A stretch of DNA of 64,000 bases, taken from the NCBI GenBank assembly GCA_963663405.2, contig CAXXSM010000036.1:1-64000 (forward strand). The letters are read 5' to 3'. Numbering within the stretch: position 1 is the first letter of the stretch; each line of letters begins with the position of its first letter. A program made the position numbers and the translations under genes. This document shows positions 17,984 through 61,909 of this stretch, one piece after another. This stretch comes from a bacterium (GTDB taxonomy: Bacteria; Hinthialibacterota; Hinthialibacteria; Hinthialibacterales; Hinthialibacteraceae). The notes under the pieces are model-generated. The model was given only the letters and a program-made list of their open reading frames with translations. It ran no database searches and was not told where the DNA came from.

Positions 17984-18330
17984 GATTCATTTCCCTTTCA
18001 TTGGAGTGAAATTGTAGAATCCTGAATTCCAATCCATCTTTTCCAAAAATTTATTATCGTAATACATTTTTTCATTCTTAAATCTATTCTAGGCTTGAAA
18101 TGAAATCGTGTAAACCCATTTTTGAAAGAAAATATAAAATTATGTATTAATAAATGACTATAATGTAATAAAAATTTATATATTTATTCCTTTATTGAAA
18201 GGTTTGAGATGGAATAAAACTTGACAAATAAAGAATAGGCGTGGTGAATGGAAGGTTCTTAATACAAAAATAATTTTTAGTTTAGAATAATGATGTGATA
18301 TTCGCGTTGTATTCAGGCGCTATTAAAACA

Positions 18331-19476: not shown

Positions 19477-19737
19477 GAAACCGTTCCTTTCATCCTGCTT
19501 CTTGTAACTCTTTTATTCATAGAGAGATATCTTATTCTGATTCTTCTGTCTTCCGTAAATGTAAAATACTGTCCTCTTTAAGAATATAGGATAGGTATCC
19601 AAAAAAATAAGATAAAAATGGGAAAAAATTGTAATCTAATTCCAATATTATTCGTATGTTAAAATAATGTTAGGATATGCGCATAAGAAATTTCTGCGTT
19701 CTGTTCTTATTAATAAGTGGGAAAGAAAAGGTGATTT

Positions 19738-28294: not shown

Positions 28295-28780
28295 CTACTT
28301 CCCAAAATAGACTTTTTCAAAATCATTAATCAGTGTATTCAGCTCGGCGGTATAGTCTAAATTAGTTGTCTGTTTCGCTTTCATGGATGCGACCAGCATG
28401 CCGTGACAGAGCGTTAGTTTCTTTACATAATCATTCCATTCCGCGCCTTCGTTGGATTCAGGGTGTTTAATGCGCTGTTGCAGGAAATATTTCGTCACAA
28501 TTTCGGCGAGTTCATCCGCGTGAGTGTCTTTGTTGATCACCCAGCGTACGATTTGATTGGCGTGATGCGATGGATCTTTGGAGAGTTCTTCAATCAGTTT
28601 CATCGATTTTTCGATTGTTGTGACATTCTCTCTTAATTGAGTAAAACGGGCGGGATCGTCATAGATGCCGCAGGGAATCTGGCAATGCGCAAAGGCGGAA
28701 TACTGGACATAGAAAACTGCGCCCAGAGTCAGCGCGATACCCATAGCGAATGCGGTGAACCGGAGAGTGCGTTGTTTCAT
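28295..28780 (-). CDS. sodN: Nickel superoxide dismutase precursor
   Basis: AFA-HCQIPCGIYDD nickel-hook after a hydrophobic signal peptide. Confidence 0.92.
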   Translation of the reverse strand: MKQRTLRFTAFAMGIALTLGAVFYVQYSAFAHCQIPCGIYDDPARFTQLRENVTTIEKSMKLIEELSKDPSHHANQIVRWVINKDTHADELAEIVTKYFLQQRIKHPESNEGAEWNDYVKKLTLCHGMLVASMKAKQTTNLDYTAELNTLINDFEKVYFGK

Positions 28781-28869
28781 TAGTCTTTCCTCCATTTATT
28801 AATTGGATGGGTGTAACTAAACTGGATTAATATGAAACATTATACCCATTCAAATTGAAAATGTGGATT

Positions 28870-31104
28870 TTAATCAAATAATAACGCAAGGACATCACGT
28901 GGCTCGAAGCGGTAGGTGAATGTGGGGCCGTTCCCATGATTTTCTAAGGAAAAGGAATTGCCGGTTTCAAGATTGACTGCGCGGCCTGAACTGGTTTCCG
29001 GTGGGAGTTGGAATTCAACGTTTTGTTTTTGTTCCGTATGATTGATCCCAATAAACAACCGTCTCTTTTCCGATTCTAACAGCCGCGCCTCGACGCATCC
29101 CTGCGCGCCATGAATTTCTACAACCGGTTCCACTCCCGCCCATGCGGTGATACGTTGCAGCATAAGACCGGTTTCCGTAATTCGTTCCCGTTCATAGGCC
29201 GCCGCTGGAAAAGTGCCGATCAACATCGCCTGTCCTTTTCCAAAAGGGGATAACACAATCGCCGGATCGCCGTTTTGAAAATAAGCCAGCGCCTTCGCTT
29301 GAGGTGAAGTGAGAGTGAGATGCTGCGCGTAGAGAATCCCATTGATGATCCGATCCCCTAATGGCGCCAACATCCCCGGCAGTTTTTCTTCTGTAATCAA
29401 GTCCACGGTCTCGCCGGATTCCAGCATTTTCTCGCGGCAGCCGAACACTTCATCCAAACCGGCGCCGGGGATTCGTTCATTGGCGAATCCGCGATCATCA
29501 TTCCATGCGGGCCGCGCTTCGCTGATGAGTGTTCCTCCCTGGCGTGTATACTCGATCAACGCTTTCGCTACGGATTCCTGCAGCATGAGAGGATAGGGGA
29601 GGTAAATCACTTTGTACTCATTCGCGCGCCCTGATAGAATCTGATCGGGATGAATGAAATCCACTTGAATATTGCGTTCAAAGAGCGCGCGGTAGAAGCC
29701 CATTAACGAATCCCGCACAACTTGGCCAGGGGCTACCGTATTCCCGCCTGTCATGTAGGCGAGCCGGTTGTAGAGTATGGCGACATCAGATTTCATTGGG
29801 CGTAACGAAGAAAAGACGCGGTGATGATCGGTAATGATTTTAGCCAATTGTCCCGCCGCTCTCGCTCGTTCGGTAATAAGGCCGTCAAGTTCGATCATAC
29901 CATATCCGTTAGATTCATAACCTGAACTCATGGGATACCAAGCGTAATAGCTGATTGAACGAACCCCGCGCGACATGGCAAGCCAACCCCATAAACGCAG
30001 ATCCGCCGCGTTGACATGAGCGCCGGCTCGTACGCCAGTGACGCCCTGTCCGGCTTGTAACTCACCCATCCACCAGCCGTTCTCACCTCCGGCGGATCGT
30101 ATACTATCTAGAGCCATAGTCAATTTGATTGGATTCCAAGCGCTTGTAGAAGAAGCGTGTTTTGGGTAAATGGAAGTTCCATAATAATCAACTGATTGCG
30201 CCATCCACCAATCGTCAGGACTTCCATAACCTGAGAGGGGAGAGAGCAGCGCGGAGGGCGCGTCCGAATGGCTGCTGACTATGCAATTAGGATCGGCGCG
30301 GCGCGCAGCGACCGCTTTACGCTTCAAATCTTCTTTTAACTTGACTGCGATAAAAGTGTTCCAATCGATAAAATCCGTATAGGACAGAATTGTTCCAAAG
30401 CGCGGCGCTTCCACTTGATCCCAACGGGAAAACGTTCGATACCAGGCGCGGTTCAATACATCCAGCGAACCGTATTTTTGTTTCAACCATTCACGGAAGC
30501 GCTCTTGAGTAAATGGATTGAAACCAAATTGAACCGGATTGTTGAACCAAACCCAATTGACGAGATGCGGTTCACTCCAAAGGTCCCAGGCGTAGAACGA
30601 TTTGTGCGCTTTAGCGATCTTTCCCGCTTCTTCGATAAAATTCTCCAAAGCGGTTCGCACGCCGGGGTGATCAAGGCTGAATCCAGGCGCGGCTTGGGAA
30701 GGGATTATACGGCCTTCACTTGTGACAAAACGCGCTTCCGGGTATGAGTCGGTGACCCACTCCGGCGCGGAATCCGCGTAAATTTGAACAATTACGCGTA
30801 GCTCGGTCTCATCCGCCAAATCGAGAAGTTGTTCCAGGCAGTCAAATCGATACTGACCGGATTGTGGTTCCGCAGACGCCCAATCGACCCAACACTTTAC
30901 GCTGTTGAAACCCAGTGAGCGAATGGTCAGCAGGTCTTTTTTCCATGCTTCGCGTTCGGCTCCGGGATTGTGGGAGAGCATGGGCGCGCGGACTTTCCCT
31001 CCTCCATACCATACACCGGCTGGATAGAAATCCTCTCCATACGACTGTAGATTAAATCCAGCGATCATAAAAATGAATAGTAAAATGGATTTAATAGAAC
31101 TCAT
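28870..31104 (-). CDS. GH42-family beta-galactosidase-like, secreted
   Basis: Signal peptide; W...EP..G.Y.F, WSEP acid/base, FREWLKQKYGSLD.LN.AW, ELQ nucleophile, trimerisation domain. Confidence 0.82.
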   Translation of the reverse strand: MSSIKSILLFIFMIAGFNLQSYGEDFYPAGVWYGGGKVRAPMLSHNPGAEREAWKKDLLTIRSLGFNSVKCWVDWASAEPQSGQYRFDCLEQLLDLADETELRVIVQIYADSAPEWVTDSYPEARFVTSEGRIIPSQAAPGFSLDHPGVRTALENFIEEAGKIAKAHKSFYAWDLWSEPHLVNWVWFNNPVQFGFNPFTQERFREWLKQKYGSLDVLNRAWYRTFSRWDQVEAPRFGTILSYTDFIDWNTFIAVKLKEDLKRKAVAARRADPNCIVSSHSDAPSALLSPLSGYGSPDDWWMAQSVDYYGTSIYPKHASSTSAWNPIKLTMALDSIRSAGGENGWWMGELQAGQGVTGVRAGAHVNAADLRLWGWLAMSRGVRSISYYAWYPMSSGYESNGYGMIELDGLITERARAAGQLAKIITDHHRVFSSLRPMKSDVAILYNRLAYMTGGNTVAPGQVVRDSLMGFYRALFERNIQVDFIHPDQILSGRANEYKVIYLPYPLMLQESVAKALIEYTRQGGTLISEARPAWNDDRGFANERIPGAGLDEVFGCREKMLESGETVDLITEEKLPGMLAPLGDRIINGILYAQHLTLTSPQAKALAYFQNGDPAIVLSPFGKGQAMLIGTFPAAAYERERITETGLMLQRITAWAGVEPVVEIHGAQGCVEARLLESEKRRLFIGINHTEQKQNVEFQLPPETSSGRAVNLETGNSFSLENHGNGPTFTYRFEPRDVLALLFD

Positions 31105-31371
31105 TGGCGATACCTCAATTATCAGCGCTCATCCAGATTTTCTTTTTTCATTGTAATGCTGGAATTGCTAAATTGACAAGAAGATATTCACTTCTCTTGA
31201 CTTTATGAGCAAATGATCGTAAAAAAAAGCGAAAAATATTTATTAACATCTGAGAATTCAACGAATATAGAATCGAAAGGGTTGAGTGACTTGCGTACAA
31301 TTGATACCATTGACGGCGTACAATCCTTTTTTGAATTGAGCGGAACTCTTTAATGAGGCGCTCCGTGTTGA

Positions 31372-32596
31372 ATGATATTTTATCCTTATACTTTTCTGTT
31401 AAAAACTGAGGGATTTTGGGAATTCAAAACACTTATATTTGGTGATGTAGTTCCATGTTTTTATTTAAATGAAAGTCACAATGACCTGTTATTTCTGACA
31501 ATCTTGCCGTCAGAAGGGAGAAAAAGGGAGAAAAGGGGAATCCGCTATCCGCTCAGTATATGGGCGTCTAGTTGATTTTCTAGAAACGAATGGGGCTTCT
31601 CTTCTGCAAGAGAGAGTCTATTGCCGGTTGCCGATTGCTGATTTGATTGAGCGGATCCGGGATGAGACGTTTTCACGACTCTCGACCAAGCAGATTCCAG
31701 CCACCTGCGTGGAAGGATTACCCTTGGATGGTACAGATTTCGCTGGGATTCACGCCATTGCTGTCCGCGTGGCCGAAGAGAATCCCTCGTGGCTTATCGA
31801 ACGGGAGAATCAAATCTGCGGACGCGTTTTTCATGGGCGAGAAGCGCAGTATCTTTCTCTCCCCGATGTCGCCCGCCTTGTGCCGGAATCGTTGCGCTTC
31901 GGCCGGGAGAAGGAAACGGATGAAGCGATCAAACTGACCGAAACGATTTTAAAAGACGCGGATTGGTCCTTCCATAACGTTTGCCGGACATGGTTTTATT
32001 TAGATGAGATTCTGGATTGGTATGGGGATTTCAACCATATCCGGAATGCGATTTATGAACGGATCGGTTTTTTTAATGGAAATCCTAACGTTGTAATCCC
32101 CGCTAGCACGGGAATTTATGGGAAAAACGCGAATGGGAACGCCTGTACTCTTGATGTATTGGCCATACGTTCCCGCAATGGGCGTCCTCTCGAATTCAAG
32201 CGGATGGTGAATGCCCGGCAGAATGAGGCCACAGATTATGGGTCCGCGTTCTCGCGAGGCATTACGATTCATACGGATTCCGCCGCCTGCATGTTTATCT
32301 CTGGGACGGCGTCTATTGATGAGTCCGGAAAAACCATTCACTTGGGTGACATGAAGCGCCAAACCAAACGGACCTTTCAGAATATTGAGACGTTGTTGGA
32401 TGGACTTGGCGCTGAGATGAAAGATATAGTACAGGCGACAGCATTTGTAAAATTTCCTGAAGACGCGGAAACTTTCTATCAAGTTCGCCGAGAAATGAAA
32501 CTAGAAAATGTTCCTATGATCTGCACGGTAGCCGATGTATGCCGCGACGATCTTTTATTTGAATTGGATGCGACGGCGGTTGTGCCCACCCGTTGA
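31372..32596 (+). pseudogene. Rid (YjgF/YER057c/UK114; FkbO/Hyg5-like) family hydrolase, frameshifted by a 10-bp tandem duplication
   Basis: RTWFYL, PASTGI, FSRG, FISGTASID, DVCRDDLLFELD; AGGGAGAAAA x2 at 31515-31534, and removing one copy fuses ORF 31372 with ORF 31628. Confidence 0.75.
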
Positions 32597-32613
32597 AATA
32601 GACATAGAGAGCC

Positions 32614-34557
32614 ATGTGGATTTTATATTCTTCTTATATTCAATGTCGAAGGAATAATCGAGCGATTCCATCCTCTTTTTTTTTAATAGCCTGGATGGTT
32701 TTCGCCCCGATCGGCTTAACGTGGGCAAAGGAGGATTCCCAATCCGATCTTATTTTTGTCCAGATTCCTGCCGCTGCTGAACCGGCGCAGTCTCCTTCGG
32801 ATCTGATCTTTTTACCATCCGCCCGTTATGTAGATGGCTGCCGGATTGTGTGTCTCTCTCTTACGGATTCGAACGCGGTACCCAAGAATCTGACACCGGA
32901 ATTCCTTTCGGCTCAAGATCCCGCTGTCTCGTTTGATGGTGAGACGATACTCTTTGCAGGTAAAAAGAGCGCGGCGGATTCCTGGTCGATCTGGCGAATG
33001 AACCGTGATGGAAGCGGAAAAGTAGAAATCACTCCGGAATTGAATGATTGTGTCAGCCCCCTTTTTGTGGGGGGATTGTTTTATCTGAATGATGACGCTC
33101 CATCGGATCAGATTGTATTCATGAGCGGCGATCATAATTGGATCAACGAGCAGGGCTCCACGCCCGCCTATTCCCTCTATGTGAGTAACCTTGAAGGGAA
33201 AAATTGTCATCGCATCACTTTCAATCTAAGCGGCGATTTTGATCCAGATGTTCTGCCAAACGGGCGCGTCGTTTTTACCAGCTGGCAGCGGTATGGAGGC
33301 CGGTTCGCGCCTACGGGAATGTTCTCACTTCTTGAAGTGAGTATTGATGGAACTGATCTAATGCCGTTTTACGGCAATTTCGAAAAACCGGTTTTCAAGG
33401 GGATGATCCGAGTTTCCGATGGGGACCGGATCTATTTCATCGAATCGGATCGCTCAACCTGGCTGGGTGGGGGGCGGATCGCGTATGTCTCATTCCGGCG
33501 TCCTCTCCACTCTCATCATATATTATGCCAGGACGCGAATGGTCTATACCATAGCCCGTGTCCATTGCCGGATGGGGGTTTGATTGCGCCGTACAGGCCC
33601 AATAATGATGAAACGCCTTTCGGACTTTATCGAATCGATCCTGAATCAGGCGAACGCTTAGAGACCATATATCAAGATGACGCATGGCGCTGCTTGGACG
33701 CGCATGTGTTAGGTCCTCATCCACGCGTGAAAGGTCGATCGAGCGTCGTCAATTTTGAACTCGATAAGGGCGTGTTTTATTGCCTTAATACATACGAAAG
33801 CGATCGGCCAGAAGCAAAAGCGATTGAGCCGGGATCGATCGCCCGTATGCGTGTGATTGAGGGAGTTCCTCTTCTTGCCAATCAACCGCCTCTCTCTACC
33901 TATTCCGCCACGCCGTTTGGTCTGCGCCGGATTCTGGGGCAGATACCGGTTGAAGCGGATGGATCGTTCCATATTGAAGTTCCTTCCCAGACACCAATCG
34001 CATTTCAACTATTAGATAAAAACGGCATGGCGCTGATGACTCATCGCAGTTGGATTTGGGCGATGCCGAAGGAAATGCGGGGATGCGCCGGCTGTCATGA
34101 GGACCGGGAACTGGCTCCTTCCAACCTTCTTGTCAAAGCGGTGGTGAAACCACCCTATTCATTAACTCTGCCACCTGAAAAACGCCGGACAACGGATTTT
34201 AAACATAATGTAGTTCCAATTTTAAAAGAGAGATGTGTTTTATGCCATTCGGAGGGAATGTCGCCGTTCGATCTCGATTTTGAAGAACAGGAGAAACGTG
34301 AAGACGCCTATAATCCTGCGTATAAGACACTGCTCGGTAAATCGGGAGAGAGACAGTATATAATTCCCGGCGATTCGAGGGAAAGCCCTTTAGTGTGGAA
34401 CCTATTTGGAGAGAAATTGGGATCGAGTCCCTATTCAGGTATTGTTGAAATGATGCCTCCTGGAGAAGCGCTCTCCTCGCTCGAGAAACGAATCATCGTG
34501 GAATGGATTGATATCGGCGCACAATGGGATAATCGAGTCGCGTTTGAAAATAATTGA
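32614..34557 (+). CDS. Hydrazine synthase alpha-subunit-like protein (TolB-like propeller + HZS-alpha middle domain + cytochrome c)
   Basis: DPAVSFDG..ILFAGK, RILGQIPVEADGSFHIEVP..TPIAFQLLDKNG...W..P.E.RGCAGCHE; second haem CVLCH; WIDIGA. Confidence 0.78.
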   Translation: MWILYSSYIQCRRNNRAIPSSFFLIAWMVFAPIGLTWAKEDSQSDLIFVQIPAAAEPAQSPSDLIFLPSARYVDGCRIVCLSLTDSNAVPKNLTPEFLSAQDPAVSFDGETILFAGKKSAADSWSIWRMNRDGSGKVEITPELNDCVSPLFVGGLFYLNDDAPSDQIVFMSGDHNWINEQGSTPAYSLYVSNLEGKNCHRITFNLSGDFDPDVLPNGRVVFTSWQRYGGRFAPTGMFSLLEVSIDGTDLMPFYGNFEKPVFKGMIRVSDGDRIYFIESDRSTWLGGGRIAYVSFRRPLHSHHILCQDANGLYHSPCPLPDGGLIAPYRPNNDETPFGLYRIDPESGERLETIYQDDAWRCLDAHVLGPHPRVKGRSSVVNFELDKGVFYCLNTYESDRPEAKAIEPGSIARMRVIEGVPLLANQPPLSTYSATPFGLRRILGQIPVEADGSFHIEVPSQTPIAFQLLDKNGMALMTHRSWIWAMPKEMRGCAGCHEDRELAPSNLLVKAVVKPPYSLTLPPEKRRTTDFKHNVVPILKERCVLCHSEGMSPFDLDFEEQEKREDAYNPAYKTLLGKSGERQYIIPGDSRESPLVWNLFGEKLGSSPYSGIVEMMPPGEALSSLEKRIIVEWIDIGAQWDNRVAFENN

Positions 34558-34560
34558 AAC

Positions 34561-34789
34561 TACGCAAATCGGCTGATCGGGATTTTCTTTGTCAGAATCA
34601 AGATAACCAGGATGTAAGGATGAGCAGGATTTTTTTCAGATTTATGAATTCATCTATTTGATGTCAGATTCTACTCAGACGATTTTATCCTGAATATCCT
34701 ATTATCTTGGCCATCCAGATTCAGACAAAGGATGAAAACAAGATCAAACTATTCCATCAAACGAGTGGATTGATTGTCCGATCTGCGTA
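34561..34789. repeat. Nested inverted-repeat (MITE/REP-like) element
   Basis: Outer TACGCAAATCGGC / GTCCGATCTGCGTA; inner imperfect TGTCAGAATCAAGATAACCAGGAT / ATCTTGGCCATCCAGATTCAGACA with AGGAT/ATCCT sub-repeats. Confidence 0.55.
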
Positions 34790-34818
34790 ACGTTAGTAAA
34801 ATTGTATGAGGTACGAGT

Positions 34819-36531
34819 ATGCGCAAACAGCGCTGTTCTTTTAATAATACTATTAATTCTATTTGCTCTTCGAAATGGATGGGAATTCAGTGGAATGTGT
34901 ATCCGCCGGTCCATCTGATTATCGTTTCGATTCTTGCATTTTTCTCACTCTCGCTTGCGCAAAGCGCGGAAGAACCGAAATACCCAACCTTCACAGATGT
35001 CACTCTCAAGGCTGGGATTCATTTTCAGCACAGTATTGGCGATCATGAACTAAGCAATATTATCGAAGGCACTGGCGCGGGGTGTTCTTTTTTTGATTAC
35101 GACGGTGATTCCGATCTCGATATCTACTTAATGAATGGCACATATGTTAAGGATTTAAGCCATATTAGAGGTCGTGTGAATGAAGGGAAACTCTTCAACG
35201 CGCTCTATCGGAATAATGGAGATGGAACCTTCACTGACGTCTCGAATGAGGCTGGTGTCGCTCACCCTGGTTTTGGGATGGCTTGCGTGGCGGCGGATTA
35301 CGATAACGATGGAGATTCCGATCTGTGGATCACGAACTGGGGGCCGAATGTCTTATACCGCAATAACGGGAATGGAACCTTTACCGATGTCACTAAAGAA
35401 GCGGGCCTTGAAAGCGATCTCTGGGGGATTGGCAGCGTCTTCTTTGATTATGATAAAGATGGAAATCTTGATCTTTATGTAGGGAATTATCTGCTATACG
35501 ATCCAGACTACACCTATCACTACGCCCCGGAAAAGTATCCAGGACCGCTTTCGTATGAAGGGCAGCCTGACATTCTCTATCACAATAATGGGGATGGGAC
35601 TTTTACGGATGTGACGAAGGAAGCGGGTGTCTATAATCCGGAGGGCCGGGCGATGGGCGTTTCTTCCTGCGATATCGACAATGATGGGGATATGGATGTC
35701 TTTGTCGCGAACGATGGGATGGAAAATTATCTCTACCGCAATAATGGCGATAATACATTTACAAATATCGCGCTGGAAACGGCGACTGGCTTTGGGCAGA
35801 GCGGGGAAGCCACTTCCGCGATGGGGCCGGAATTTGGAGATTTCGACCTGGATGGTTATATTGATCTCCTCGTTCCGGATATGGGGTATTCCTGCATCTA
35901 CCGGAATACAGGTTTAGGTTTTTTTGAGGAAATGAGCGCGCGGATGGGATTGGCGGCGTCCTGTGGGCAGTATACCAGCTGGTCGGGTAATTTCTTTGAT
36001 TTCGACTGTGACGGATATCTCGATATTTTTATCGCCAATGGGGACAGTCATAAATTGGATGCGGAAGAGGATATCCTGTTGCGTAATATTAACGGTCAGC
36101 GATTCGAAGATATCTCATCCGAATGTGGACCGGATTTCCAGGATAAATTCGTCAGCCGGGGATCGGCGATTGGGGATTATGATGATGATGGAGATCTGGA
36201 TGTATTGGTTTTAAATATAAACAATCGCGCGCGGCTCCTGCGAAATGAAGGTGGAAACCGGAACCATTGGCTGAAGATCCATACAATTGGAACGATAAGC
36301 AATCGCGATGGAATTGGTACGCGAATCCGTGTCACGGTTGGAGGGAAAACCCAGACGCGTGACATTGTGAGCAGTTCCGGCTATTTATCTCAAAACGATT
36401 ACCGGGCGCATTTCGGACTTGGCCAGTACGAGAAAGTGGACACCATCGAAGTGAGATGGCCTAGTGGGAAGAAACAAGTCTTGGAAAATGTGATGGGGAA
36501 TCAAGTCTTGGTTTTAAAGGAACCTAAATAA
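34819..36531 (+). CDS. CRTAC1/ASPIC-UnbV family FG-GAP repeat protein
   Basis: Repeated DYDNDGD.DL / LYRNNGDGTFTDV; SNRDGIGTRI, HFGLG, EVRWPSG. Confidence 0.9.
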   Translation: MRKQRCSFNNTINSICSSKWMGIQWNVYPPVHLIIVSILAFFSLSLAQSAEEPKYPTFTDVTLKAGIHFQHSIGDHELSNIIEGTGAGCSFFDYDGDSDLDIYLMNGTYVKDLSHIRGRVNEGKLFNALYRNNGDGTFTDVSNEAGVAHPGFGMACVAADYDNDGDSDLWITNWGPNVLYRNNGNGTFTDVTKEAGLESDLWGIGSVFFDYDKDGNLDLYVGNYLLYDPDYTYHYAPEKYPGPLSYEGQPDILYHNNGDGTFTDVTKEAGVYNPEGRAMGVSSCDIDNDGDMDVFVANDGMENYLYRNNGDNTFTNIALETATGFGQSGEATSAMGPEFGDFDLDGYIDLLVPDMGYSCIYRNTGLGFFEEMSARMGLAASCGQYTSWSGNFFDFDCDGYLDIFIANGDSHKLDAEEDILLRNINGQRFEDISSECGPDFQDKFVSRGSAIGDYDDDGDLDVLVLNINNRARLLRNEGGNRNHWLKIHTIGTISNRDGIGTRIRVTVGGKTQTRDIVSSSGYLSQNDYRAHFGLGQYEKVDTIEVRWPSGKKQVLENVMGNQVLVLKEPK

Positions 36532-36553
36532 AGGTAGTAAAGGAAGAGTAAGA

Positions 36554-39391
36554 ATGAGCAGGCGTTTGGCGATTGTCTTATTCAGCGTGGTTTTGGCGCT
36601 TCCCATGATTGATGGACGGCGCGCGCAGTCCGCTGACCGGATATATATGGGAGAATCCATCTGCCGCCAGTGTCACCACGACGCGATAGGCAAGCGGAAT
36701 CAATTCAATCTATGGCGGACGTCCAAACACGCCAACGCCTATGCGGCTCTCGCCATGCCGGAAGCGAAAGAAATCGCTGAACTGTCCGGGATCGATGTGA
36801 ATCCATTTGACAGCAAGGTCTGCCTGGGATGTCACACCACCGCTCCAGAAACTGAAGCGTGGGAACGCGACAGCCGTTTCTACTTTGAAGATGGAATCCA
36901 ATGTGAAGCCTGTCACGGTCCTGGCAGTGGATATATGGAACTGGACGTGATGATGGACCGGGAAAAGGCGATGATGGCCGGATTGAAGATGCCCGGCGAA
37001 GAATTCTGTATGGTCTGTCATAAAGAAAAAGGATCGCACACCGCGGTCTTGCGAGTGAAAGAGTTTAATTACAAAGACGCGCTTCGGGAAATCGCTCACG
37101 CGGGGAAGGGAGGGGATCTCCCGCAGATGGAAAAACCCGCCGTGAAACTTGAATCCGGGCCGAAATATACGGGGGCGATGGTGTGTGGGAAATGTCACCA
37201 AGGCTCCATGATGGGCCATCAATACAGCCTGTGGCGTAATTCCCGCCATGCGCGCGCGTTTGCAGTTTTAGGCACGGAAAAAGGATTGAAGATCGCGCGC
37301 GATCAAGGGATCGACAATCCACAGAAAGCCTCCCAATGCTTGAAATGCCATTCCACAGGATACGGAAATCCACCGGGCCGGTTTCTGAAGAGTTTTGATA
37401 TTGCGCAAGGCGTACAGTGTGAAAGCTGTCACGGCCCCGGCAGTGAATACAGCCCGGAAGCGGTCATGACCGATCCCATCGCCTCCCACGAAGCGGGCCT
37501 TTTGAAGGTAAACCGGGAGACTTGTTTGAAATGTCATAACGAAGAAAATTTTGATTTTCCTAAACGAGTCAAGCGAATCGCGCATCCCAAACCGAAAGGA
37601 GATCGAGTCTCTCAAATCGAATACAAAACCCCCTTCAATCTTGCAATTACAAAAGATGGAGAACGTTTGTTCATCGCTTGTGAAGGATCGGATAGTGTTA
37701 TTGTTGTGAACACGGATATCCACCGCGTGGTGGCGGAGATAAAAATCGAAAACCTGCCTCACGCGGTTGTTCTATCACCCGATGAGACTCGTGTATACGC
37801 GGCTAACCGGGGAACGGACACCATTTCTGTGATTGACGCGAATACCTACGAAGTCCTCACAACAATCGCCGTGGGAGACGAGCCGCATGAGATGGCGCTC
37901 AATAATGTGGGGGATATACTCTACGTGGCCAACGCCGCGTCATACGATGTGTCTATAGTCGATCTGAAGCAAAACCGCGAGGTCAAACGCCTTTCCGCCG
38001 CGCGGGGAACCTGGGGAATTGCGCCTTCGCCTGACGGTAAGAGGCTTTTCGTTTCCAATAACCTTTCTCACTATGTCAAATTCCGTGAACCGTCTAAATC
38101 CGAGGTGACGGTGATCGACGCGGATCGAGGAGTTGTAACAGATCGAATTATGATTCCCTCCGCGAATTTGGTCCAAGGCGTCGCTGTAGCGCCGGATGAT
38201 GAATTCGCGCTTGTTACACTGATCCGGACGAAGAACCTTGTCCCCATGACCCGTGTGATGCAGGGATGGGTGATTACGAATGGAATTGGTGTCTTGTGGA
38301 AAGACGGGCGGGTTGATCAATTACTTCTCGATGAGGTAAATAATTTCTTCGCCGATCCGACCGATGTTGTCATTACGCCGGATGGGAAATACGCGTATGT
38401 CAGCGCGGGGGGGATCGATAAAGTAGCCGTTATTGATCTTGACAAAATGAAAGCCCTGTTGGCGCGATCGACCGATAAAGAGCGCGAAGCGATTTTGCCC
38501 AATCATCTTACCGCCAGTATGGAATTTACACTCAAACGAATCGCCGTTGGACGCAGCCCACGCGGCATGACAGTCTCACCGGATGGGCGTTTTGTTTATG
38601 TGGCTGACGGGCTGGATGACACAATTTCTGTAATTGATGTGGCGAAACAGGAACGTACGAGCGTTATCGATCTGGGTGGACCGAAAGAGATCACACTCAC
38701 CCGCAAAGGGGAACGAATCTTTCACAGCGCCGAAGTGACATATGGGCGCCAGTTCTCTTGTCATTCCTGCCATCCTGATGGCGGGATCGATGGCATTACA
38801 TACGATATTGAACCGGATGGAGTTGGTTTAGATCCAGTGGATAACCGAACCCTGCGCGGTATACTCGATACGGCTCCATTTAAATGGACGGGGAAGAATC
38901 CTTCTCTCAGCCGCCAATGCGGTCCGCGTCTGGCGGTCTTTTTTACACGTATCGATCCGTTTACTCCCGATCAGGTCAAAGCGCTCGATCGGTATATCTG
39001 TACGATCCCCCGGTCACCGAACCGGTATCGTGTGGGAGATGAGTTGACGCCAGCGCAGCGGCGTGGTAAAGAGATGTTTGAACGAACTCATTCCAACGCG
39101 GGACGAGAAATCCCAATCGGCAACCGCTGTAATACATGTCATCCTGCGCCGTATTTCACCAATCGAGAAGTGGCGGATGTCGGCACGAAATCCTGGTTAG
39201 ACCAGGAGGGAATCCTCGATGTGCCTCATCTCAACAATATTTATGAAACGCCTCCTTTTCTTCATGACGGCCGGGCGGAGACATTGGAAGAAATCTGGAC
39301 GCGCTTCAATCCGAATGACGAACATGGTCTTACAAATGATATGACCAAAGATCAACTCAACGATTTGGTTGAATATTTGAAAACACTTTAA
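36554..39391 (+). CDS. Decahaem protein: two c554-like tetrahaem domains + YVTN beta-propeller + CCP/MauG-like dihaem domain (HzsB/HzsC-like fusion)
   Basis: Ten CxxCH motifs (8 N-terminal, then CHSCH and CNTCH); YVAN/ISVID blades; TAPFKWTG, PFLHDGRAETLEE, L..YLKTL. Confidence 0.82.
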   Translation: MSRRLAIVLFSVVLALPMIDGRRAQSADRIYMGESICRQCHHDAIGKRNQFNLWRTSKHANAYAALAMPEAKEIAELSGIDVNPFDSKVCLGCHTTAPETEAWERDSRFYFEDGIQCEACHGPGSGYMELDVMMDREKAMMAGLKMPGEEFCMVCHKEKGSHTAVLRVKEFNYKDALREIAHAGKGGDLPQMEKPAVKLESGPKYTGAMVCGKCHQGSMMGHQYSLWRNSRHARAFAVLGTEKGLKIARDQGIDNPQKASQCLKCHSTGYGNPPGRFLKSFDIAQGVQCESCHGPGSEYSPEAVMTDPIASHEAGLLKVNRETCLKCHNEENFDFPKRVKRIAHPKPKGDRVSQIEYKTPFNLAITKDGERLFIACEGSDSVIVVNTDIHRVVAEIKIENLPHAVVLSPDETRVYAANRGTDTISVIDANTYEVLTTIAVGDEPHEMALNNVGDILYVANAASYDVSIVDLKQNREVKRLSAARGTWGIAPSPDGKRLFVSNNLSHYVKFREPSKSEVTVIDADRGVVTDRIMIPSANLVQGVAVAPDDEFALVTLIRTKNLVPMTRVMQGWVITNGIGVLWKDGRVDQLLLDEVNNFFADPTDVVITPDGKYAYVSAGGIDKVAVIDLDKMKALLARSTDKEREAILPNHLTASMEFTLKRIAVGRSPRGMTVSPDGRFVYVADGLDDTISVIDVAKQERTSVIDLGGPKEITLTRKGERIFHSAEVTYGRQFSCHSCHPDGGIDGITYDIEPDGVGLDPVDNRTLRGILDTAPFKWTGKNPSLSRQCGPRLAVFFTRIDPFTPDQVKALDRYICTIPRSPNRYRVGDELTPAQRRGKEMFERTHSNAGREIPIGNRCNTCHPAPYFTNREVADVGTKSWLDQEGILDVPHLNNIYETPPFLHDGRAETLEEIWTRFNPNDEHGLTNDMTKDQLNDLVEYLKTL

Positions 39392-39410
39392 GATATAAGG
39401 GATCCTAGAA

Positions 39411-40589
39411 ATGAAAGGTATCTTTCCAATCGTTTTGGCTGTGAGTTGTTTCTGTTTCACCGCATTTGGAGAAGAGAAAGCAGTTGAGAAGCCTATCCTT
39501 GCTGGGGAGCCGTATGTCTATACCGAGTGGGAAGCGTTCACGACTGAATCCACACACGGTGGTTTGATCAACGACCATATTTTCGGCCTGACGGCGGATG
39601 GGAACCGGTTGTGGATTGGAACCGAGAACGGCTTGGTTCTCTACGAAAATGGAAAATGGAAACATTGGACCGAAGAAGACGGCCTGCCGTGGCGGGTTGT
39701 CAGTTCCATCGCAGTCAGCCCTAAAACAGGTGATGTATGGGTCGGTATGTTCGGAGGAGGAATCGCTCGTTTCAGCGCTGGGCGCTTTGATCATTTCCAT
39801 CAGTTGAACAGTGGATTGGTCAATGATGTCGTCTACTCTCTTGATGTGGAAGGCGATAACATTTGGGTCGCCACGACCGCTGGAGTCAGTTCGTACAATA
39901 CAATCACGGGGGAGTGGGAAATCTACACCGAAAAAAACGCGCCGATGGAAGAAATCTGGTGCTACAGTCTCGACGCTACAAAAGATAAAGTGCATGTCGC
40001 CGTATGGGGCGGCGGTATTCTAGAATGGGATGTCAAAGACCGGACTTGGACCGATCATCACGATCCGGATGGGGAGATGGAGATTGATCTTTATCGTGAT
40101 GATGGCCTGATTCACATTATCACCACTTCCGCGTCTTACGTTGATAATATTCTGTGGGCTTCCACTTATTTCGGTTTAAGCCGTTACGATGGACGGCACT
40201 GGCGGGGATATATGGATCACGACAGCGGCCTCGCCAGCAGTTTCATCAACCTTGCTAAAGGACGGAGCGGAACCTGTTGTTATAATGCGACGGACTATGG
40301 ATTGGCGGTTTTAGTGGATTTTGAAACCGATACATGGGTCACTTATCTGCGCGAAACCGAAGACGCCAAAACGTGGACGGCGGAAGTGAAAATCGGGAAT
40401 GAATTGATTCGTAAAGTTCCGACGCAGCTCTCCCTTCCCAATCATTTCATCATTTGTGTAGAATTCATGGGTGATGATGTGTGGATTGGAACCGGTCACG
40501 GACTGGCGCGTGGCATTGGAACCGGTTATTGGCCTGGACTAAAGAAATCAGAGAAGACAGTTTCAGCGAAAACAACGAAGTCTGAATAA
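39411..40589 (+). CDS. Secreted two-component-regulator-type beta-propeller protein
   Basis: Signal peptide; LWIGTENGL, W..EDGLP, NSGLVND.V, WIGTGHGL repeats. Confidence 0.8.
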   Translation: MKGIFPIVLAVSCFCFTAFGEEKAVEKPILAGEPYVYTEWEAFTTESTHGGLINDHIFGLTADGNRLWIGTENGLVLYENGKWKHWTEEDGLPWRVVSSIAVSPKTGDVWVGMFGGGIARFSAGRFDHFHQLNSGLVNDVVYSLDVEGDNIWVATTAGVSSYNTITGEWEIYTEKNAPMEEIWCYSLDATKDKVHVAVWGGGILEWDVKDRTWTDHHDPDGEMEIDLYRDDGLIHIITTSASYVDNILWASTYFGLSRYDGRHWRGYMDHDSGLASSFINLAKGRSGTCCYNATDYGLAVLVDFETDTWVTYLRETEDAKTWTAEVKIGNELIRKVPTQLSLPNHFIICVEFMGDDVWIGTGHGLARGIGTGYWPGLKKSEKTVSAKTTKSE

Positions 40590-40612
40590 AAACATACTTG
40601 TTACGAGGTGAT

Positions 40613-41992
40613 ATGATGAAACAGTTCTTCGGCGTAATCTTTCTAATAAGTGTGTTATCTGGCGCGTGGGTATGGGCGGATGATGTATCCAATCCGCCTG
40701 CGAAATCGGAAAGCGCCGGGATAGCGAATTCGACGGAACTGCCAAATTATGGGGGGACGCCGGAGGAATATGTCCCCTTTGGACATTTTACGAAACCATA
40801 CAAGCGCTTTTTCCTTGAACCGCTTTTGTATCGGGGGTATGGACGTCATATCCCCGAACCCAAGCATGTGGAAAGCGTTAAAATCGGCTTTATCGGCCCA
40901 ATCATGAAAACCGTGTCGGTCGCGACAGGCGGCGCTTCGCATGAAGAACCACTCGGCCTAAAGATGCTGCAAGGCGCCCGCCTGGCGATCGAACACGCCA
41001 ACGCCAACGGTGGCTATCGTGGATCAGGCATCCCGTATGAGTTGGTCGTTAAAAATGACAACGGCCTTTGGGGCGCGTCCGGAAGTGAGATTATCGACCT
41101 CGCTTACAAAGATAAAGTCTGGGCGATTGTTGGCACGATCGACGGCGCCAACAGCCATATCGCGATCCGCGTCGCTCTAAAGATTGAAATCCCCATGATG
41201 AACACCGGAGACACCGATCCGACGTTTATCGAGACCAATATCCCTTGGGTGTTCCGCAATATCACCGATGATCGTACGATGTGTTATTTGTTGGCCGATT
41301 TCGCATTCAAGAAGCTGGGATTGACCAAAATCGCCGCTCTCCGCGCCGGCAACCGCTATGGACGCATGAGCATTGATGAGTTCCGCGACGGCGCCCGGCG
41401 GCTTGGATTTCCATTTGCCACGGAAATGCAGTATCGATTGGGGGACACCGACTATACTACTCAACTTAAACGGATTCAGGATCTTAAACCGGACGCGGTG
41501 ATTACGTACGGCAATTCATATGAATCCGCGCTGGTTCTCAAACAAATGCGGGAGATGGGGATGGATCAATGGTATTTCGGCAGCGACCGTATGGTGACAC
41601 AGGAATTTCTCGATATTGTTGGAGACAAAGCGGGTAAAGTCGCCGCTGGTTATCCCTATAATCCCACCAGCAAGGATGATAGACACGTTCAATTTATTGA
41701 AGCGTTCAAAGAGCGCTTTGGCGCCGAACCGGAAACATACGCGGGCCATGCCTACGATGGCATCGAAATGTTGGTCCAGGCGATTGAAGAAGCGGGTTTG
41801 AACCGCGCGTTGATCCGTGACACTCTTGCGGAGATGACTAATTTTCATGGCGTCACCGGTATAAAAGAAATGGACGCGGTTTTCAGCAACCGTTCAAGCG
41901 CCTGTCTTGCGATTGTGGAGGATGGTGAATTCAAATTCTATACACGCGATCAAATTTTGGGTGAAGATTCCCTCGAATTTACGAAACGTTAG
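40613..41992 (+). CDS. Type I periplasmic binding protein (LivJ/Peripla_BP_6-like)
   Basis: KIGFIGP, GARLAIEHANANGG, AHAYDG-type motif (GHAYDG), F.GVTG. Confidence 0.85.
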   Translation: MMKQFFGVIFLISVLSGAWVWADDVSNPPAKSESAGIANSTELPNYGGTPEEYVPFGHFTKPYKRFFLEPLLYRGYGRHIPEPKHVESVKIGFIGPIMKTVSVATGGASHEEPLGLKMLQGARLAIEHANANGGYRGSGIPYELVVKNDNGLWGASGSEIIDLAYKDKVWAIVGTIDGANSHIAIRVALKIEIPMMNTGDTDPTFIETNIPWVFRNITDDRTMCYLLADFAFKKLGLTKIAALRAGNRYGRMSIDEFRDGARRLGFPFATEMQYRLGDTDYTTQLKRIQDLKPDAVITYGNSYESALVLKQMREMGMDQWYFGSDRMVTQEFLDIVGDKAGKVAAGYPYNPTSKDDRHVQFIEAFKERFGAEPETYAGHAYDGIEMLVQAIEEAGLNRALIRDTLAEMTNFHGVTGIKEMDAVFSNRSSACLAIVEDGEFKFYTRDQILGEDSLEFTKR

Positions 41993-42007
41993 TCTTGGCA
42001 GGTCCCG

Positions 42008-43207
42008 ATGAGACGAATTGGAAAATGGCTCCGGGGGGGATGGTTTATCTTCCCCGGTTTCTTTATTTTTACTTATTTACACGTAAGTTACGCAGCCGAA
42101 AGCCTCCCATCCATTCCTCATAAACGCATGTTAGATGATCCGCTCGAGTTTACTGGCCGCGAGGGGCCGGTGGGCGATCCAATGAAGTTGGGAGAGATCC
42201 GCATCGGTTTTTTTGCGCCGGTTGATGGTTCCGATCCTGTGGGGGACGCAATGTGGAAGGGGGCGTCTCTCGCTGTCGAGGAGGCGAATCGCGCTGGAGG
42301 GTATCAACAAGTTCCATATCGGTTGATATCGCGTTGGGCGGATGATCCTTGGGGAGCGGGTTCAAAGGAGATGATCCGGTTGGTCTATGAAGATCGCGTC
42401 TGGGCGGTGATCGGCTCGATTGACGGTGATACGACTCATATCGCCGAACAAATTGTTACTAAAGCGCGTCTGCCTCTCATTTCACCCGTGTCGTCCGATC
42501 CTACGCTGACGTTCATCCGGATTCCCTGGATTTTTCGCCTGGCGCCGGACGATCGCTCGCAGGCGAACGTTCTTGTCAGCGATGGCATAATCCAGCATGG
42601 TTGCAAGCGAATCGGATTGATCACAGCGTCCAACCATGATGGACGGATCGCGGCGAAAGAATTGAAAGACGCGCTGGGAAAAAATAATATAGCGCCTGTC
42701 TGTCATCTTATTCTGCCACCGGATCCGGAATCCTTTGGGGAATTGGCGGATAAACTTCAGGCGTTTCACTGTGACACGCTGGCGCTGGCGATTCCTAGAG
42801 ATTCAATAGGACCATTGTTGAAGTCATTCAAAAATAATAATATCAAAATCCCTGTTTTTTTTCCTTGGATACCCGGCGCCGATGAAAGAGAGTTAAAAAA
42901 ACTATATGAAGGAATGTTGGTTACTATTCGTCCATTTGAAGAAGATACTCTAACAGAACAGTATTCCACGTTCCTTCTGGCCTATCAAAATCGGTTTGGG
43001 GAATCCCCTAACGCTTGCGCGGTGTATGCGTATGACGCGGTGAACATCATTGGTAAAGCCATTCAATCCCAAGGTTTGAACCGGGCGCGTATCCGCCGCG
43101 CATTGGCTGATATGAAATGTGGAGAAGGAGTGACGGGGAAAATCGTCTGGGATCATGGGGGAGGGAATCCAGGGCGCCCGTTGATCTATAAGATCACCGC
43201 CCCATGA
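42008..43207 (+). CDS. Type I periplasmic binding protein (LivJ/Peripla_BP_6-like), paralog of upstream gene
   Basis: RIGFFAP, GASLAVEEANRAGG, WIFRLAPDD, YAYDAV, GVTG. Confidence 0.85.
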   Translation: MRRIGKWLRGGWFIFPGFFIFTYLHVSYAAESLPSIPHKRMLDDPLEFTGREGPVGDPMKLGEIRIGFFAPVDGSDPVGDAMWKGASLAVEEANRAGGYQQVPYRLISRWADDPWGAGSKEMIRLVYEDRVWAVIGSIDGDTTHIAEQIVTKARLPLISPVSSDPTLTFIRIPWIFRLAPDDRSQANVLVSDGIIQHGCKRIGLITASNHDGRIAAKELKDALGKNNIAPVCHLILPPDPESFGELADKLQAFHCDTLALAIPRDSIGPLLKSFKNNNIKIPVFFPWIPGADERELKKLYEGMLVTIRPFEEDTLTEQYSTFLLAYQNRFGESPNACAVYAYDAVNIIGKAIQSQGLNRARIRRALADMKCGEGVTGKIVWDHGGGNPGRPLIYKITAP

Positions 43208-43219
43208 GAAACTGTATGG

Positions 43220-44233
43220 CTAGGATTTTAGGTGTTCGTCGAAGAACGTGAGCGCGCGCTGTTCGATATAGGGACACACAACCATGCCCGTGAGCAGCAC
43301 GGCTGAATAATGGCCCGTGGGCACATAAAGTGTCTTAGGACAGCCCAGCGCTTGGCGCAGTCTCTCACCCGTTCGCCGGGGAACGGTCGCGTCCATCCGC
43401 GCGAGAATCAAAAATGTCTTCTGCGCATTGATATACGGCGCGAATCGAAGCGGTTCAGAGAGGATTTCTTCCCGGATCGCGTCTCGCAGTTCTTCCATTG
43501 TCCAACCGTTTTTTTCACGGATGGCGGTCCGGATACTGTCCAGTTTTTCAAGATTGCTTGTAGTTAAAATGGAACCGAAATCGCCACCCGCCAGCGCGAA
43601 TACATTCGCTTTCAAACGGGGTTCCACTCCCGCAAGGATAACATTCTTGATTCCTCCATAACTCACTCCGAAACTGCCCAGCGCTTCTGTGTCGACGCCT
43701 TCCTGCTGACAGAGCCAATCCAGCGCAATCCGATCCCGAATGACCGCGTCACACATTTGCTCTTCCAGACTGCTTAATTCGATCGCTTCTCCGCGCCGCG
43801 CTTTCTTTAAAAGATCGGGCGGGCGGTGTACGACGAGGCAGTGATACCCGCGCATTGAAAAACGCTGCGCGAAATGAGACGCCACCCGGTTTTTCCCACC
43901 CAAAATCGGTGAGATTAGAAGCCCCGGCGCTGATCCGTTTTCATCGCAGGGGTAATAATCTACTGTGAGAGGCTCATCACCGTTCTGGACTTGGATTTTT
44001 ACGCGGATGAATCCATCGGGATTTTTTTCCTGGGAGAGAACCGGGCAGCCGGTTGGCTGCCGGTAGCGTTCGTCCAATTCAGGAGGGCGGATTACAGGTC
44101 CAGTGTAATCCCGATCCAAACGCACGGTGGCGCATTGAAACTGCGATAAACAAAGCGCAAAGAAAAACAACCAGCGAATTGAAAATAAATTTCCCAGGAA
44201 TATCTTGCTCAAATAGGTTTTTATACGTATCAT
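43220..44233 (-). CDS. Alpha/beta hydrolase, probably exported
   Basis: GVSYGG nucleophile elbow, D (MDATVP) and H (TGHY) triad residues. Confidence 0.8.
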   Translation of the reverse strand: MIRIKTYLSKIFLGNLFSIRWLFFFALCLSQFQCATVRLDRDYTGPVIRPPELDERYRQPTGCPVLSQEKNPDGFIRVKIQVQNGDEPLTVDYYPCDENGSAPGLLISPILGGKNRVASHFAQRFSMRGYHCLVVHRPPDLLKKARRGEAIELSSLEEQMCDAVIRDRIALDWLCQQEGVDTEALGSFGVSYGGIKNVILAGVEPRLKANVFALAGGDFGSILTTSNLEKLDSIRTAIREKNGWTMEELRDAIREEILSEPLRFAPYINAQKTFLILARMDATVPRRTGERLRQALGCPKTLYVPTGHYSAVLLTGMVVCPYIEQRALTFFDEHLKS

Positions 44234-61901: not shown

Positions 61902-61909
61902 GCGATTTG

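Follow-up and report, generated by a model that had tools for sequence, protein, structure and literature searches.

Gene content and layout of the locus

The window analysed here, a 64,000-nucleotide stretch of contig CAXXSM010000036.1 (assembly GCA_963663405.2) from a member of the Hinthialibacteraceae, carries a tight six-gene periplasmic module whose central genes encode distant homologues of subunits alpha, beta and gamma in the hydrazine synthase (HZS) of anammox bacteria. The gene set occurs widely and has spread by horizontal transfer, and this locus represents one of its copies. An earlier reading of this DNA, hereafter the original prediction, had recognised in the range 32614..39391 an HZS-like multihaem complex outside an anammox context. 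The observation is real and was read correctly, and its kind is already in print as clade I of the co-located HZS homologues that Hagglund et al. (2025, Genome Biol Evol, PMC12758564) divide, in their main text, into four clades.

This range holds three genes, not two, with an FG-GAP gene sitting between the pair that had been singled out. All genes of the module lie on the plus strand and are, in order, those of the alpha-like protein P0001 (32614..34557; 647 amino acids (aa); HZS_alpha match, two CxxCH motifs); the secreted CRTAC1-like propeller P0002, with six FG-GAP repeats and a UnbV_ASPIC domain in Pfam (34819..36531; 570 aa); the decahaem HzsBC-like, or beta-gamma-like, protein P0003 (36554..39391; 945 aa; Pfam and NCBIfam matches, ten CxxCH); the secreted single Reg_prop-type beta-propeller P0005, assigned with Pfam, which is the sixth conserved member of the set (39411..40589; 392 aa); and two periplasmic binding proteins of Pfam family Peripla_BP_6, binding protein 1 (P0006; 40598..41992; 464 aa) and binding protein 2 (P0007; 42008..43207; 399 aa). 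The intergenic gaps measure 8-22 nt, except for 261 nt 3' of the alpha-like gene, and all six proteins have signal-like hydrophobic N-termini. A scan of 31000-43600 for promoters and terminators stayed at the level of shuffled sequence (20 vs 17.3 and 13 vs 12.4, respectively).

Homology to the subunits of hydrazine synthase

The alpha-like protein has exactly two CxxCH motifs, at residues 491 and 541. A search with the HZS_alpha hidden Markov model (HMM) had been proposed as a check of the original prediction, and Pfam HZS_alpha (PF18582) matches residues 429-496 with an E-value of 3.4e-25. In a phmmer search of PDB sequences, the protein was matched to chain A of the Kuenenia enzyme (5c2v_A; E 3.3e-52) in four stretches that span the whole alpha plan. 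A fold search with its AlphaFold model, which has a predicted local distance difference test score (pLDDT) of 86.4, returned 5c2v_A first (E 6.8e-45; TM-scores TMq 0.76 and TMt 0.65; 25% identity) and TolB propellers next (TMq 0.36), and the TolB-like N-terminal propeller is confirmed because TolB ranks second. HMM and fold search therefore agree with the HzsA-like propeller, middle domain and two haem motifs originally described. Among 50 aligned alpha-like homologues, G490, C491, G493, C494, H495, E496 and D449-F452 are invariant, and the second haem motif is kept in 92%. Four Acidobacteriota-labelled loci (L023, L026, L027 and L032) encode alpha-like proteins of only 479-496 aa, without the C-terminal second-haem domain; these are consistent with the statement, in the main text of PMC12758564, that some HZS homologues are without haem alpha-II.

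The ten CxxCH motifs of the beta-gamma-like protein lie at residues 37, 90, 117, 152, 211, 262, 289, 324, 736 and 859. A signal peptide and two c554-type tetrahaem domains with four motifs each (~residues 30-335, nt 36641-37558) are followed by a seven-bladed YVTN propeller, recognised by a YVTN/lactonase match (~residues 355-700, nt 37616-38653), and by a dihaem domain like that of HzsC and of the cytochrome c peroxidases (CCPs), with the motifs at 736 and 859 (~residues 705-945, nt 38666-39388). Both Pfam and the motif count thus support the layout of two c554 domains, propeller and CCP-like dihaem domain, with ten haems in total, that had been read from the letters. Cytochrome_C554 (PF13435) scores 110.5 bits in two stretches, compared with a gathering score of 20.8, and the c554 part finds 1bvb in the PDB (E 1.6e-6); the eight-haem part also matches the Pfam MtrC/MtrF domain (E 6e-13) and PDB entry 6i5b. 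CCP_MauG (PF03150) reaches 27.3 bits on the dihaem domain, compared with a cut-off of 25.6, and no single stretch passes alone. By this Pfam score, its two CxxCH motifs and an inter-haem Trp, the domain belongs with CCP/MauG, which applies to the domain only and not to the whole protein.

The beta-gamma-like protein was matched by phmmer to 5c2v_B (E 2.3e-41) and 5c2v_C (E 1.8e-15), and a gamma-like profile built from 45 sequences found 5c2v_C at E 2.9e-29, followed by dihaem peroxidases from 1.9e-8. Its AlphaFold model (pLDDT 85.2) returned 5c2v_B first (TMt 0.91; root-mean-square deviation 1.9 A over 347 columns), in a search of the whole 945-aa model that is dominated by the propeller and scores nothing for the gamma-like or c554 parts. 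In 73 aligned sequences all ten CxxCH motifs, W778, C789, R792, H904 and H924 are invariant; in profile alignments W778 pairs with the catalytic Trp of the dihaem peroxidase 1iqc, and the C-terminal motif around H904 aligns with CCPs. Distant as it is, the homology of the two proteins to Kuenenia HZS (subunits alpha, beta and gamma) is real, and the three-module HZS architecture is present, namely, I) an alpha propeller with middle and haem domains, II) a seven-bladed beta propeller, and III) a gamma dihaem domain. The earlier description of all three HZS-type modules with a built-in electron wire is hence upheld by the matches to chains A, B and C of 5c2v and by the c554 domains.

Residues that separate the module from hydrazine synthase

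Assignment as a hydrazine synthase was rejected at the level of family models, since all four NCBIfam scores are far below the curated equivalog cut-offs: hydrazine_alpha gives 206 bits on the alpha-like protein (cut-off 800), and hydrazine_BC, hydrazine_beta and hydrazine_gamma give 212 (1250), 191 (560) and 67 (625) bits on the beta-gamma-like protein. The defining residues point the same way. In HZS, haem alpha-I has Tyr591 as ligand, and His587 and Cys303 hold a Zn, which serves as a criterion for the anammox enzyme. In the alignment to 5C2V, alpha-like H495 is followed by E-D-R-E-L-A-P with no Tyr, Phe256 stands at the position of Cys303, and Pro616 at that of alpha His772, the distal ligand of the bis-His haem alpha-II; a two-residue gap at Ser590/Tyr591 is described for clades I-III in the main text of PMC12758564. 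Met614, beside Pro616, is kept in 62% of the 50 sequences and is a possible candidate for a Met ligand of haem alpha-II.

In the gamma-like domain, Trp778 occupies the position of gamma His144 in the profile alignment, as in CCP/MauG. PMC12607021 places gamma Asp168 at 4.08 A from the iron of haem gamma-I and proposes that it donates the proton in NO reduction and in the formation of hydroxylamine; here its position is taken by R792 in a pairwise alignment or by L793 in the profile alignment, neither of which is acidic. An argument for an anion substrate from Arg792, as a distal Arg at haem gamma-I, was rejected, since Kuenenia too has an Arg at the position that the profile alignment matches to it. 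The two Glu of the Kuenenia beta loop, either of which may be the Mg ligand, align with R567 and M569, neither of them acidic; Arg567 is invariant, and most homologues have Leu at the position of Met569. C789 aligns with gamma Cys165, which forms the third covalent haem link, and is invariant in 73/73 sequences. Among the key HZS residues examined, only this extra gamma Cys-haem link appears to survive. Because the catalytic residues are absent in the alignments, the enzyme is not a hydrazine synthase, and the N-N chemistry suggested in the original prediction is not supported. The gene order differs as well, with alpha followed by beta-gamma here and beta, gamma, then alpha in anammox bacteria.

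Predicted interface between the alpha-like and beta-gamma-like proteins

Residues 345-945 of the beta-gamma-like protein and 380-647 of the alpha-like protein were modelled as a complex, each with its own alignment. The interaction prediction score from aligned errors (ipSAE) was 0.71 (runs 0.70, 0.78 and 0.71) compared with 0.37 for the best control, where the like complex 5C2V has been solved and the result may be memory; in a benchmark, the ipSAE mark applied was reached by 58/80 solved complexes and by 2/110 mismatched pairs. The interface expected from the original prediction was thus recovered above controls, with the same proviso. The runs share at least 90% of contacts, and the pLDDT of the partners is at least 80. 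In the model, the alpha haem-I loop (488-506) contacts residues 558-575 (a propeller insertion loop), 647-653 and the gamma-like stretch 751-758 of the beta-gamma-like protein. When this protein was modelled alone, pLDDT fell below 50 at 566-571, 754-757 and 786-796, segments that coincide with the predicted interface or with the surroundings of haem gamma-I, including C789.

Conservation provides a test that is independent of the complex model's own score. The interface is enriched in columns with conservation of 90% or more: these hold 22 of the 32 interface residues on the beta-gamma side, compared with 241/601 (P 7e-4), and 9/21 on the alpha side, compared with 49/268 (P 0.006). The complex model supports an arrangement as in HZS, in which the alpha haem-I loop docks on the insertion loop of the beta propeller and on the gamma-like domain. 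Because the modelled loop docks as in HZS, the HZS layout, in which two haem sites are joined via a gated interface, is probably retained.

Distribution and conservation of the module

One genome per species was scanned for 185,579 species, which yielded 316 pattern-matched stretches, and 303 of these encode a relative of the beta-gamma-like protein. Neighbour counts and the phylum tally refer to the best 80 of the 303 related loci. In these, the relatives are 51-68% identical and nearly all approximately full length, with locus L034 matching only to residue 846. A hand tally of record titles assigned 39 loci to Planctomycetota, 19 to Acidobacteriota, 8 to Verrucomicrobiota and 2 each to Gemmatimonadota and Calditrichota, with 4 single other labels and 6 unlabelled. 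Within the family of the window's genome, 16/19 other genomes have an orthologue of the beta-gamma-like gene.

Neighbours were sought with tblastn, and each denominator is restricted to loci whose contig extends far enough on the side concerned. Order and strand matched those of the window for the FG-GAP gene directly upstream of the beta-gamma-like gene (67/68 loci), the Reg_prop propeller gene directly downstream of it (70/71) and the gene of binding protein 1 (63/64). The alpha-like gene likewise accompanies the beta-gamma-like gene in 57/58 loci with upstream room, so that the co-occurrence of the two genes, also named beforehand as a check, is borne out. Exceptions are L022, without an alpha-like or FG-GAP gene upstream, and L034, in which the beta-gamma-like gene is shortened and nothing follows downstream. 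Linkage of the six genes, with their order unchanged, extends over at least five phyla.

Clustering of 969 open reading frames (ORFs) of related loci revealed no other widely shared neighbour, and neither a quinol dehydrogenase nor an outer-membrane porin gene is conserved nearby. In subsets of loci there are genes for Rid, DAHP synthase, C-N hydrolase or TPR proteins or for a sigma-54 regulator. A DAHP synthase gene stands beside a Rid-type gene upstream of the module in five loci (L018, L021, L024, L052 and L070), and a carbon-nitrogen hydrolase gene flanks it, mostly downstream, in six (L037, L038, L041, L044, L050 and L067). These flanks are a possible hint of a tie to chorismate-derived or organic-nitrogen compounds.

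Variants of the beta-gamma-like gene were also noted in the family. In genomes G002 (C3:84666-87038) and G018 (C69:9773-12121) the ORFs measure ~800 aa and, of the c554 region, match the first ~190 residues only; in G001 (C5:20149-22946) the c554 and beta-gamma parts lie in separate ORFs (430 and 585 aa), possibly by a split or a frameshift.

Partner genes

The FG-GAP protein P0002 matches Pfam FG-GAP_3 (E 1.7e-50) and UnbV_ASPIC (E 4.4e-25) and finds CRTAC1 in the PDB (9etn; E 1.9e-23). The Reg_prop propeller P0005 scores 27.5 bits with Pfam Reg_prop and matches the sensor propeller 4a2l (E 1.1e-23); in 57 sequences, ~90 of its positions are at least 97% conserved, including the acidic stretch D218-D231. 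A protein atlas search with this propeller returned only unnamed Reg_prop clusters.

Binding protein 1 (Peripla_BP_6, E 1.7e-45) has a conserved N-terminal extension of ~60 aa and, with that extension included, more than 100 positions that are at least 97% conserved. Its nearest PDB entries are branched-chain amino-acid binding proteins, e.g., 4gnr. Binding protein 2 (E 2.8e-37; 4gnr, E 2.3e-15) is much less conserved. Two or more binding-protein ORFs are present in 44 of the 62 loci that carry any. ABC permease and ATPase genes are not among the shared neighbours in the ORF clustering, and both binding proteins are orphans without a transporter.

The Rid-like protein P0004 (31628..32596, plus strand; 322 aa; recognised with Pfam and NCBIfam) lies outside the core set, and a homologue is found upstream, in the same order and strand, in 26/53 loci. 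Its gene ends 17 nt 5' of the alpha-like gene, and the protein has no signal-like N-terminus. Pfam Ribonuc_L-PSP matches at E 5e-16, TIGR04444 (FkbO/Hyg5) gives 57.6 bits compared with a cut-off of 325, and weak PDB matches include the chorismatases 5ag3 and 4bps. P0004 is a cytoplasmic protein of the tandem-Rid/chorismatase fold and is accessory rather than core.

Genome context and other HZS-like genes

The window's genome measures 8.4 Mb and is 82% complete. Other genes of the window encode GH32/43 and GH42 hydrolases, a nickel superoxide dismutase, a sugar kinase and FGE-sulfatase fusions, and they fit a large-genome, glycan-degrading heterotroph. The dismutase gene (28295-28795, minus strand) lies ~2.8 kb 5' of the module with GH42 between, and is not among the conserved neighbours in the ORF clustering of other loci. 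The FGE-sulfatase fusions include an 839-aa protein (15464-17983, minus strand) in which CBM96 is joined by an FGE-sulfatase-type domain and by long repeats of the collagen triple helix (E 2.6e-58) and a Ser/Thr kinase fused to an FGE-sulfatase domain (59601-62012). A stretch of low GC content (18001-20000; 0.38 vs ~0.48 around) covers a metallophosphoesterase gene (18331-19476) and adjoins the gene of a protein with CotH and lamin-tail domains (19738-22278).

HzsA-like domains alone had been called widespread, which holds true here: the window's genome has four, and a Bacteroides thetaiotaomicron control has one. Two are lone HZS_alpha middle domains (C18:62405-62680 and C120:38581-38850, in ORFs of 1334 and 722 aa) for which no beta-gamma-like partner was noted. 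Another belongs to a second HZS-like pair on the minus strand of contig C149 (145100-149695; L096:6101-10696), in which an 869-aa alpha-like protein (HZS_alpha E 2.6e-33, two CxxCH) is encoded directly upstream of a 633-aa beta-gamma-like protein with only two CxxCH and no c554 domains; FG-GAP and binding-protein genes are not found nearby. By layout alone, this pair resembles clade IV as described in the main text of PMC12758564. A short paralogue of this type, ~25-33% identical to residues 355-945 of the beta-gamma-like protein, occurs in many relatives. One HAO-family ORF was found in the genome, on another contig, and none in the window, as the original prediction had said in making no claim of anammox; HDH was not specifically searched.

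Possible functions of the module

Taken as a whole, the observations are best explained by a clade I-type periplasmic multihaem enzyme of the hydrazine-synthase superfamily, a reading that is given an even chance. The part of it that concerns the reaction, a channelled reductase with two sites that receives electrons through the eight-haem wire and acts on a small N- or O-oxide, is put forward more tentatively. On this view, the eight c554-type haems would take up electrons from the respiratory chain and hand them on, by way of haem gamma-II and Trp778, to the triply linked haem gamma-I, where the oxide, namely nitrite, NO, hydroxylamine or peroxide, would be reduced. Haem alpha-I, with its ordinary His ligand, would then complete the product. 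Structural roles, or the delivery of substrate or cofactor, would fall to the FG-GAP protein, the Reg_prop propeller and the pair of binding proteins. The fused eight-haem wire points to bulk exchange of electrons with the respiratory chain, and the two-site layout, if kept, argues for a channelled two-step reaction.

Several points weigh against this explanation. The substrate and the direction of electron flow are both inferred. The interface may reflect memory of 5C2V, in which case it indicates likeness rather than binding. Conservation within the module is lowest for the alpha-like protein (31-51% identity among the 50 aligned homologues), and 4/50 of these are without its second haem domain. 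The loss of gamma Asp168, in the light of what PMC12607021 describes for this residue, argues against NO chemistry of the HZS type at haem gamma-I, the CCP/MauG-type Trp suits oxidative chemistry equally well, and a reductase leaves the binding proteins and the two extra propellers without a role. Nitrogen-cycle genes were searched in the genomes of 50 of the 80 loci, which are incomplete and were compared with no matched background, so that the counts are weak either way: the copper nitrite reductase NirK was over its cut-off in 0/50, the HAO family was found in 21/50 and NrfA in 20/50 (14 strong), and no match to NrfA was found in the window's own genome (82% complete). There is no obligatory link to known N-oxide enzymes, with NirS and Nor outside the search.

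The alternative that survives best, although it is regarded as doubtful, is an oxidative machine like MauG or CCP, in which a high-valent species of the gamma-like dihaem would oxidise a partner protein or a small organic-nitrogen substrate supplied by the binding proteins, with electrons leaving through the c554 wire as they do from HAO to c554 in nitrifiers. The invariant Trp778 corresponds to the catalytic Trp of the peroxidase 1iqc and replaces gamma His144 (PMC12758564, main text), although CCP_MauG is barely above its cut-off and the HZS-specific third Cys-haem link is retained at C789. An organic-nitrogen substrate would suit binding proteins of the amino-acid or amide type without transporter genes, as well as the Rid-type, C-N hydrolase and DAHP synthase genes that adjoin the module in 26/53, six and five loci, respectively; however, the Rid-like protein is cytoplasmic and occurs in only half of the loci. 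The C149 paralogue matches a RoxA-like cytochrome domain. On the other hand, no modified target protein is evident, and the carriers include groups labelled as strict anaerobes (Sedimentisphaerales, Aminicenantes), which makes peroxide or O2 less likely as the oxidant.

It is unlikely that the module acts on a metal, metalloid or sulfur compound, or that it is an electron conduit with little catalysis of its own. Such a role would draw on the twelve haems, of which eight form a wire resembling multihaem cytochromes of the outer membrane and surface (MtrC/MtrF, 6i5b), and on the lack of a fixed link to nitrogen-cycle genes in the 50 carrier genomes; several carrier lineages are metal reducers. 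Conservation, however, is highest in the HZS-type haem pockets and the interface loop, which indicates catalysis there, and no gene for an outer-membrane porin or a quinol dehydrogenase is conserved nearby.

A bolder reading is offered as a long shot: the module may be an undescribed two-site channelled haem enzyme of the nitrogen cycle, present in hundreds of non-anammox species of at least five phyla, that takes nitrite or NO via hydroxylamine to ammonium, or joins hydroxylamine to an amine delivered by the binding proteins, and that represents the ancestral state of hydrazine synthase. It is hardly credible that the locus encodes a true hydrazine synthase of some anammox-type organism so far unrecognised, and this was refuted at the level of defining residues: three subunit types, the extra gamma Cys and an HAO-family ORF elsewhere in the genome speak for it, whereas the four NCBIfam scores fall short, the alpha Tyr, Cys303, His772, gamma His144 and an acidic gamma Asp168 are all missing, the genes run in the opposite order to those of anammox bacteria (PMC12758564, main text), the module is common in heterotroph lineages and its neighbours in the window are glycoside hydrolases.

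Hydrazine synthase was long thought to be without relatives. Of those that are widespread, this module is the closest; many heterotrophs of soil and sediment carry it, and its beta-gamma-like protein is strongly conserved (51-68% identity across phyla). Its reaction, once found, would show what HZS evolved from and could contribute a further enzyme to the chemistry of nitrogen or peroxide in anoxic habitats. The locus is no evidence of anammox, and matches of ~200 bits to HZS models should not be taken as such.

Comparison with known systems

The two tetrahaem domains of the beta-gamma-like protein belong to the family of Nitrosomonas cytochrome c554 (PDB 1BVB/1FT5); in contrast to c554, a free carrier from HAO to the membrane, they are in tandem and fused to an enzyme. 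With CCP/MauG proteins, the dihaem domain shares two c-haems, a conserved Trp between them and the H904 motif, which aligns with CCPs. It differs from these in its position behind a propeller and an eight-haem wire, the third Cys-haem link, the HzsA-like partner and the marginal Pfam score. Likeness to Kuenenia stuttgartiensis HZS (PDB 5C2V) extends to the way in which the alpha haem-I loop is predicted to dock against gamma and the beta loop. Identity is, however, 24-27%, beta and gamma are fused with eight haems added, haem alpha-I would be bound by an ordinary CxxCH His with no Tyr/Zn site, four extra conserved partner genes are present, and the gene order is the reverse of that given for anammox bacteria in the main text of PMC12758564.

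The novelty that the original prediction implied for the co-located set does not hold, as the set is already described as clade I and, in a looser version, in metagenome-assembled genomes (MAGs) of the Phycisphaerae group UBA1845 (Dalcin Martins et al. 2023, PMC10732223). In the relevant passages of that paper, an hzsA-like gene is reported upstream of a fused hzsBC-like gene, the authors propose a wider HZS-like enzyme family with other substrates, and the MAGs are discussed as possible novel anammox bacteria. As in the window, alpha-like stands 5' of fused beta-gamma-like outside the Brocadiales; unlike in the window, the hzsA-like gene is immediately upstream of the hzsBC-like gene. Literature searches, which left subscription journals mostly outside their coverage, found no functional study of HZS homologues.

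The closest match is clade I of Hagglund et al., with which the window was compared through a term search and selected sections of the main text; the supplementary tables may list more. Its carriers there include Syntrophobacter fumaroxidans, Thermogutta terrifontis, Aquisphaera giovannonii, Novipirellula artificiosorum, Paludibaculum fermentans and Opitutus terrae. As in the window, alpha-like lies upstream, FG-GAP/CRTAC1 between and the beta-gamma fusion downstream, eight extra haem motifs form two c554 domains on the beta-gamma protein, and two substrate-binding-protein genes follow. Gamma Cys165 is kept, and alpha Tyr591, Cys303 and His772, gamma His144 (to Trp) and the beta-loop Glu are lost; its authors report the same lost and kept residues and state that the proteins cannot make hydrazine. 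Relative to that main text, the present analysis adds the Reg_prop gene as sixth member, the absence of a transporter for the binding proteins, the very high conservation of binding protein 1, the loss of gamma Asp168, the interface prediction and the 303 related loci. Judged by its genes and residues, the window locus is a further member of the clade I HZS homologues, with no essential difference from them.

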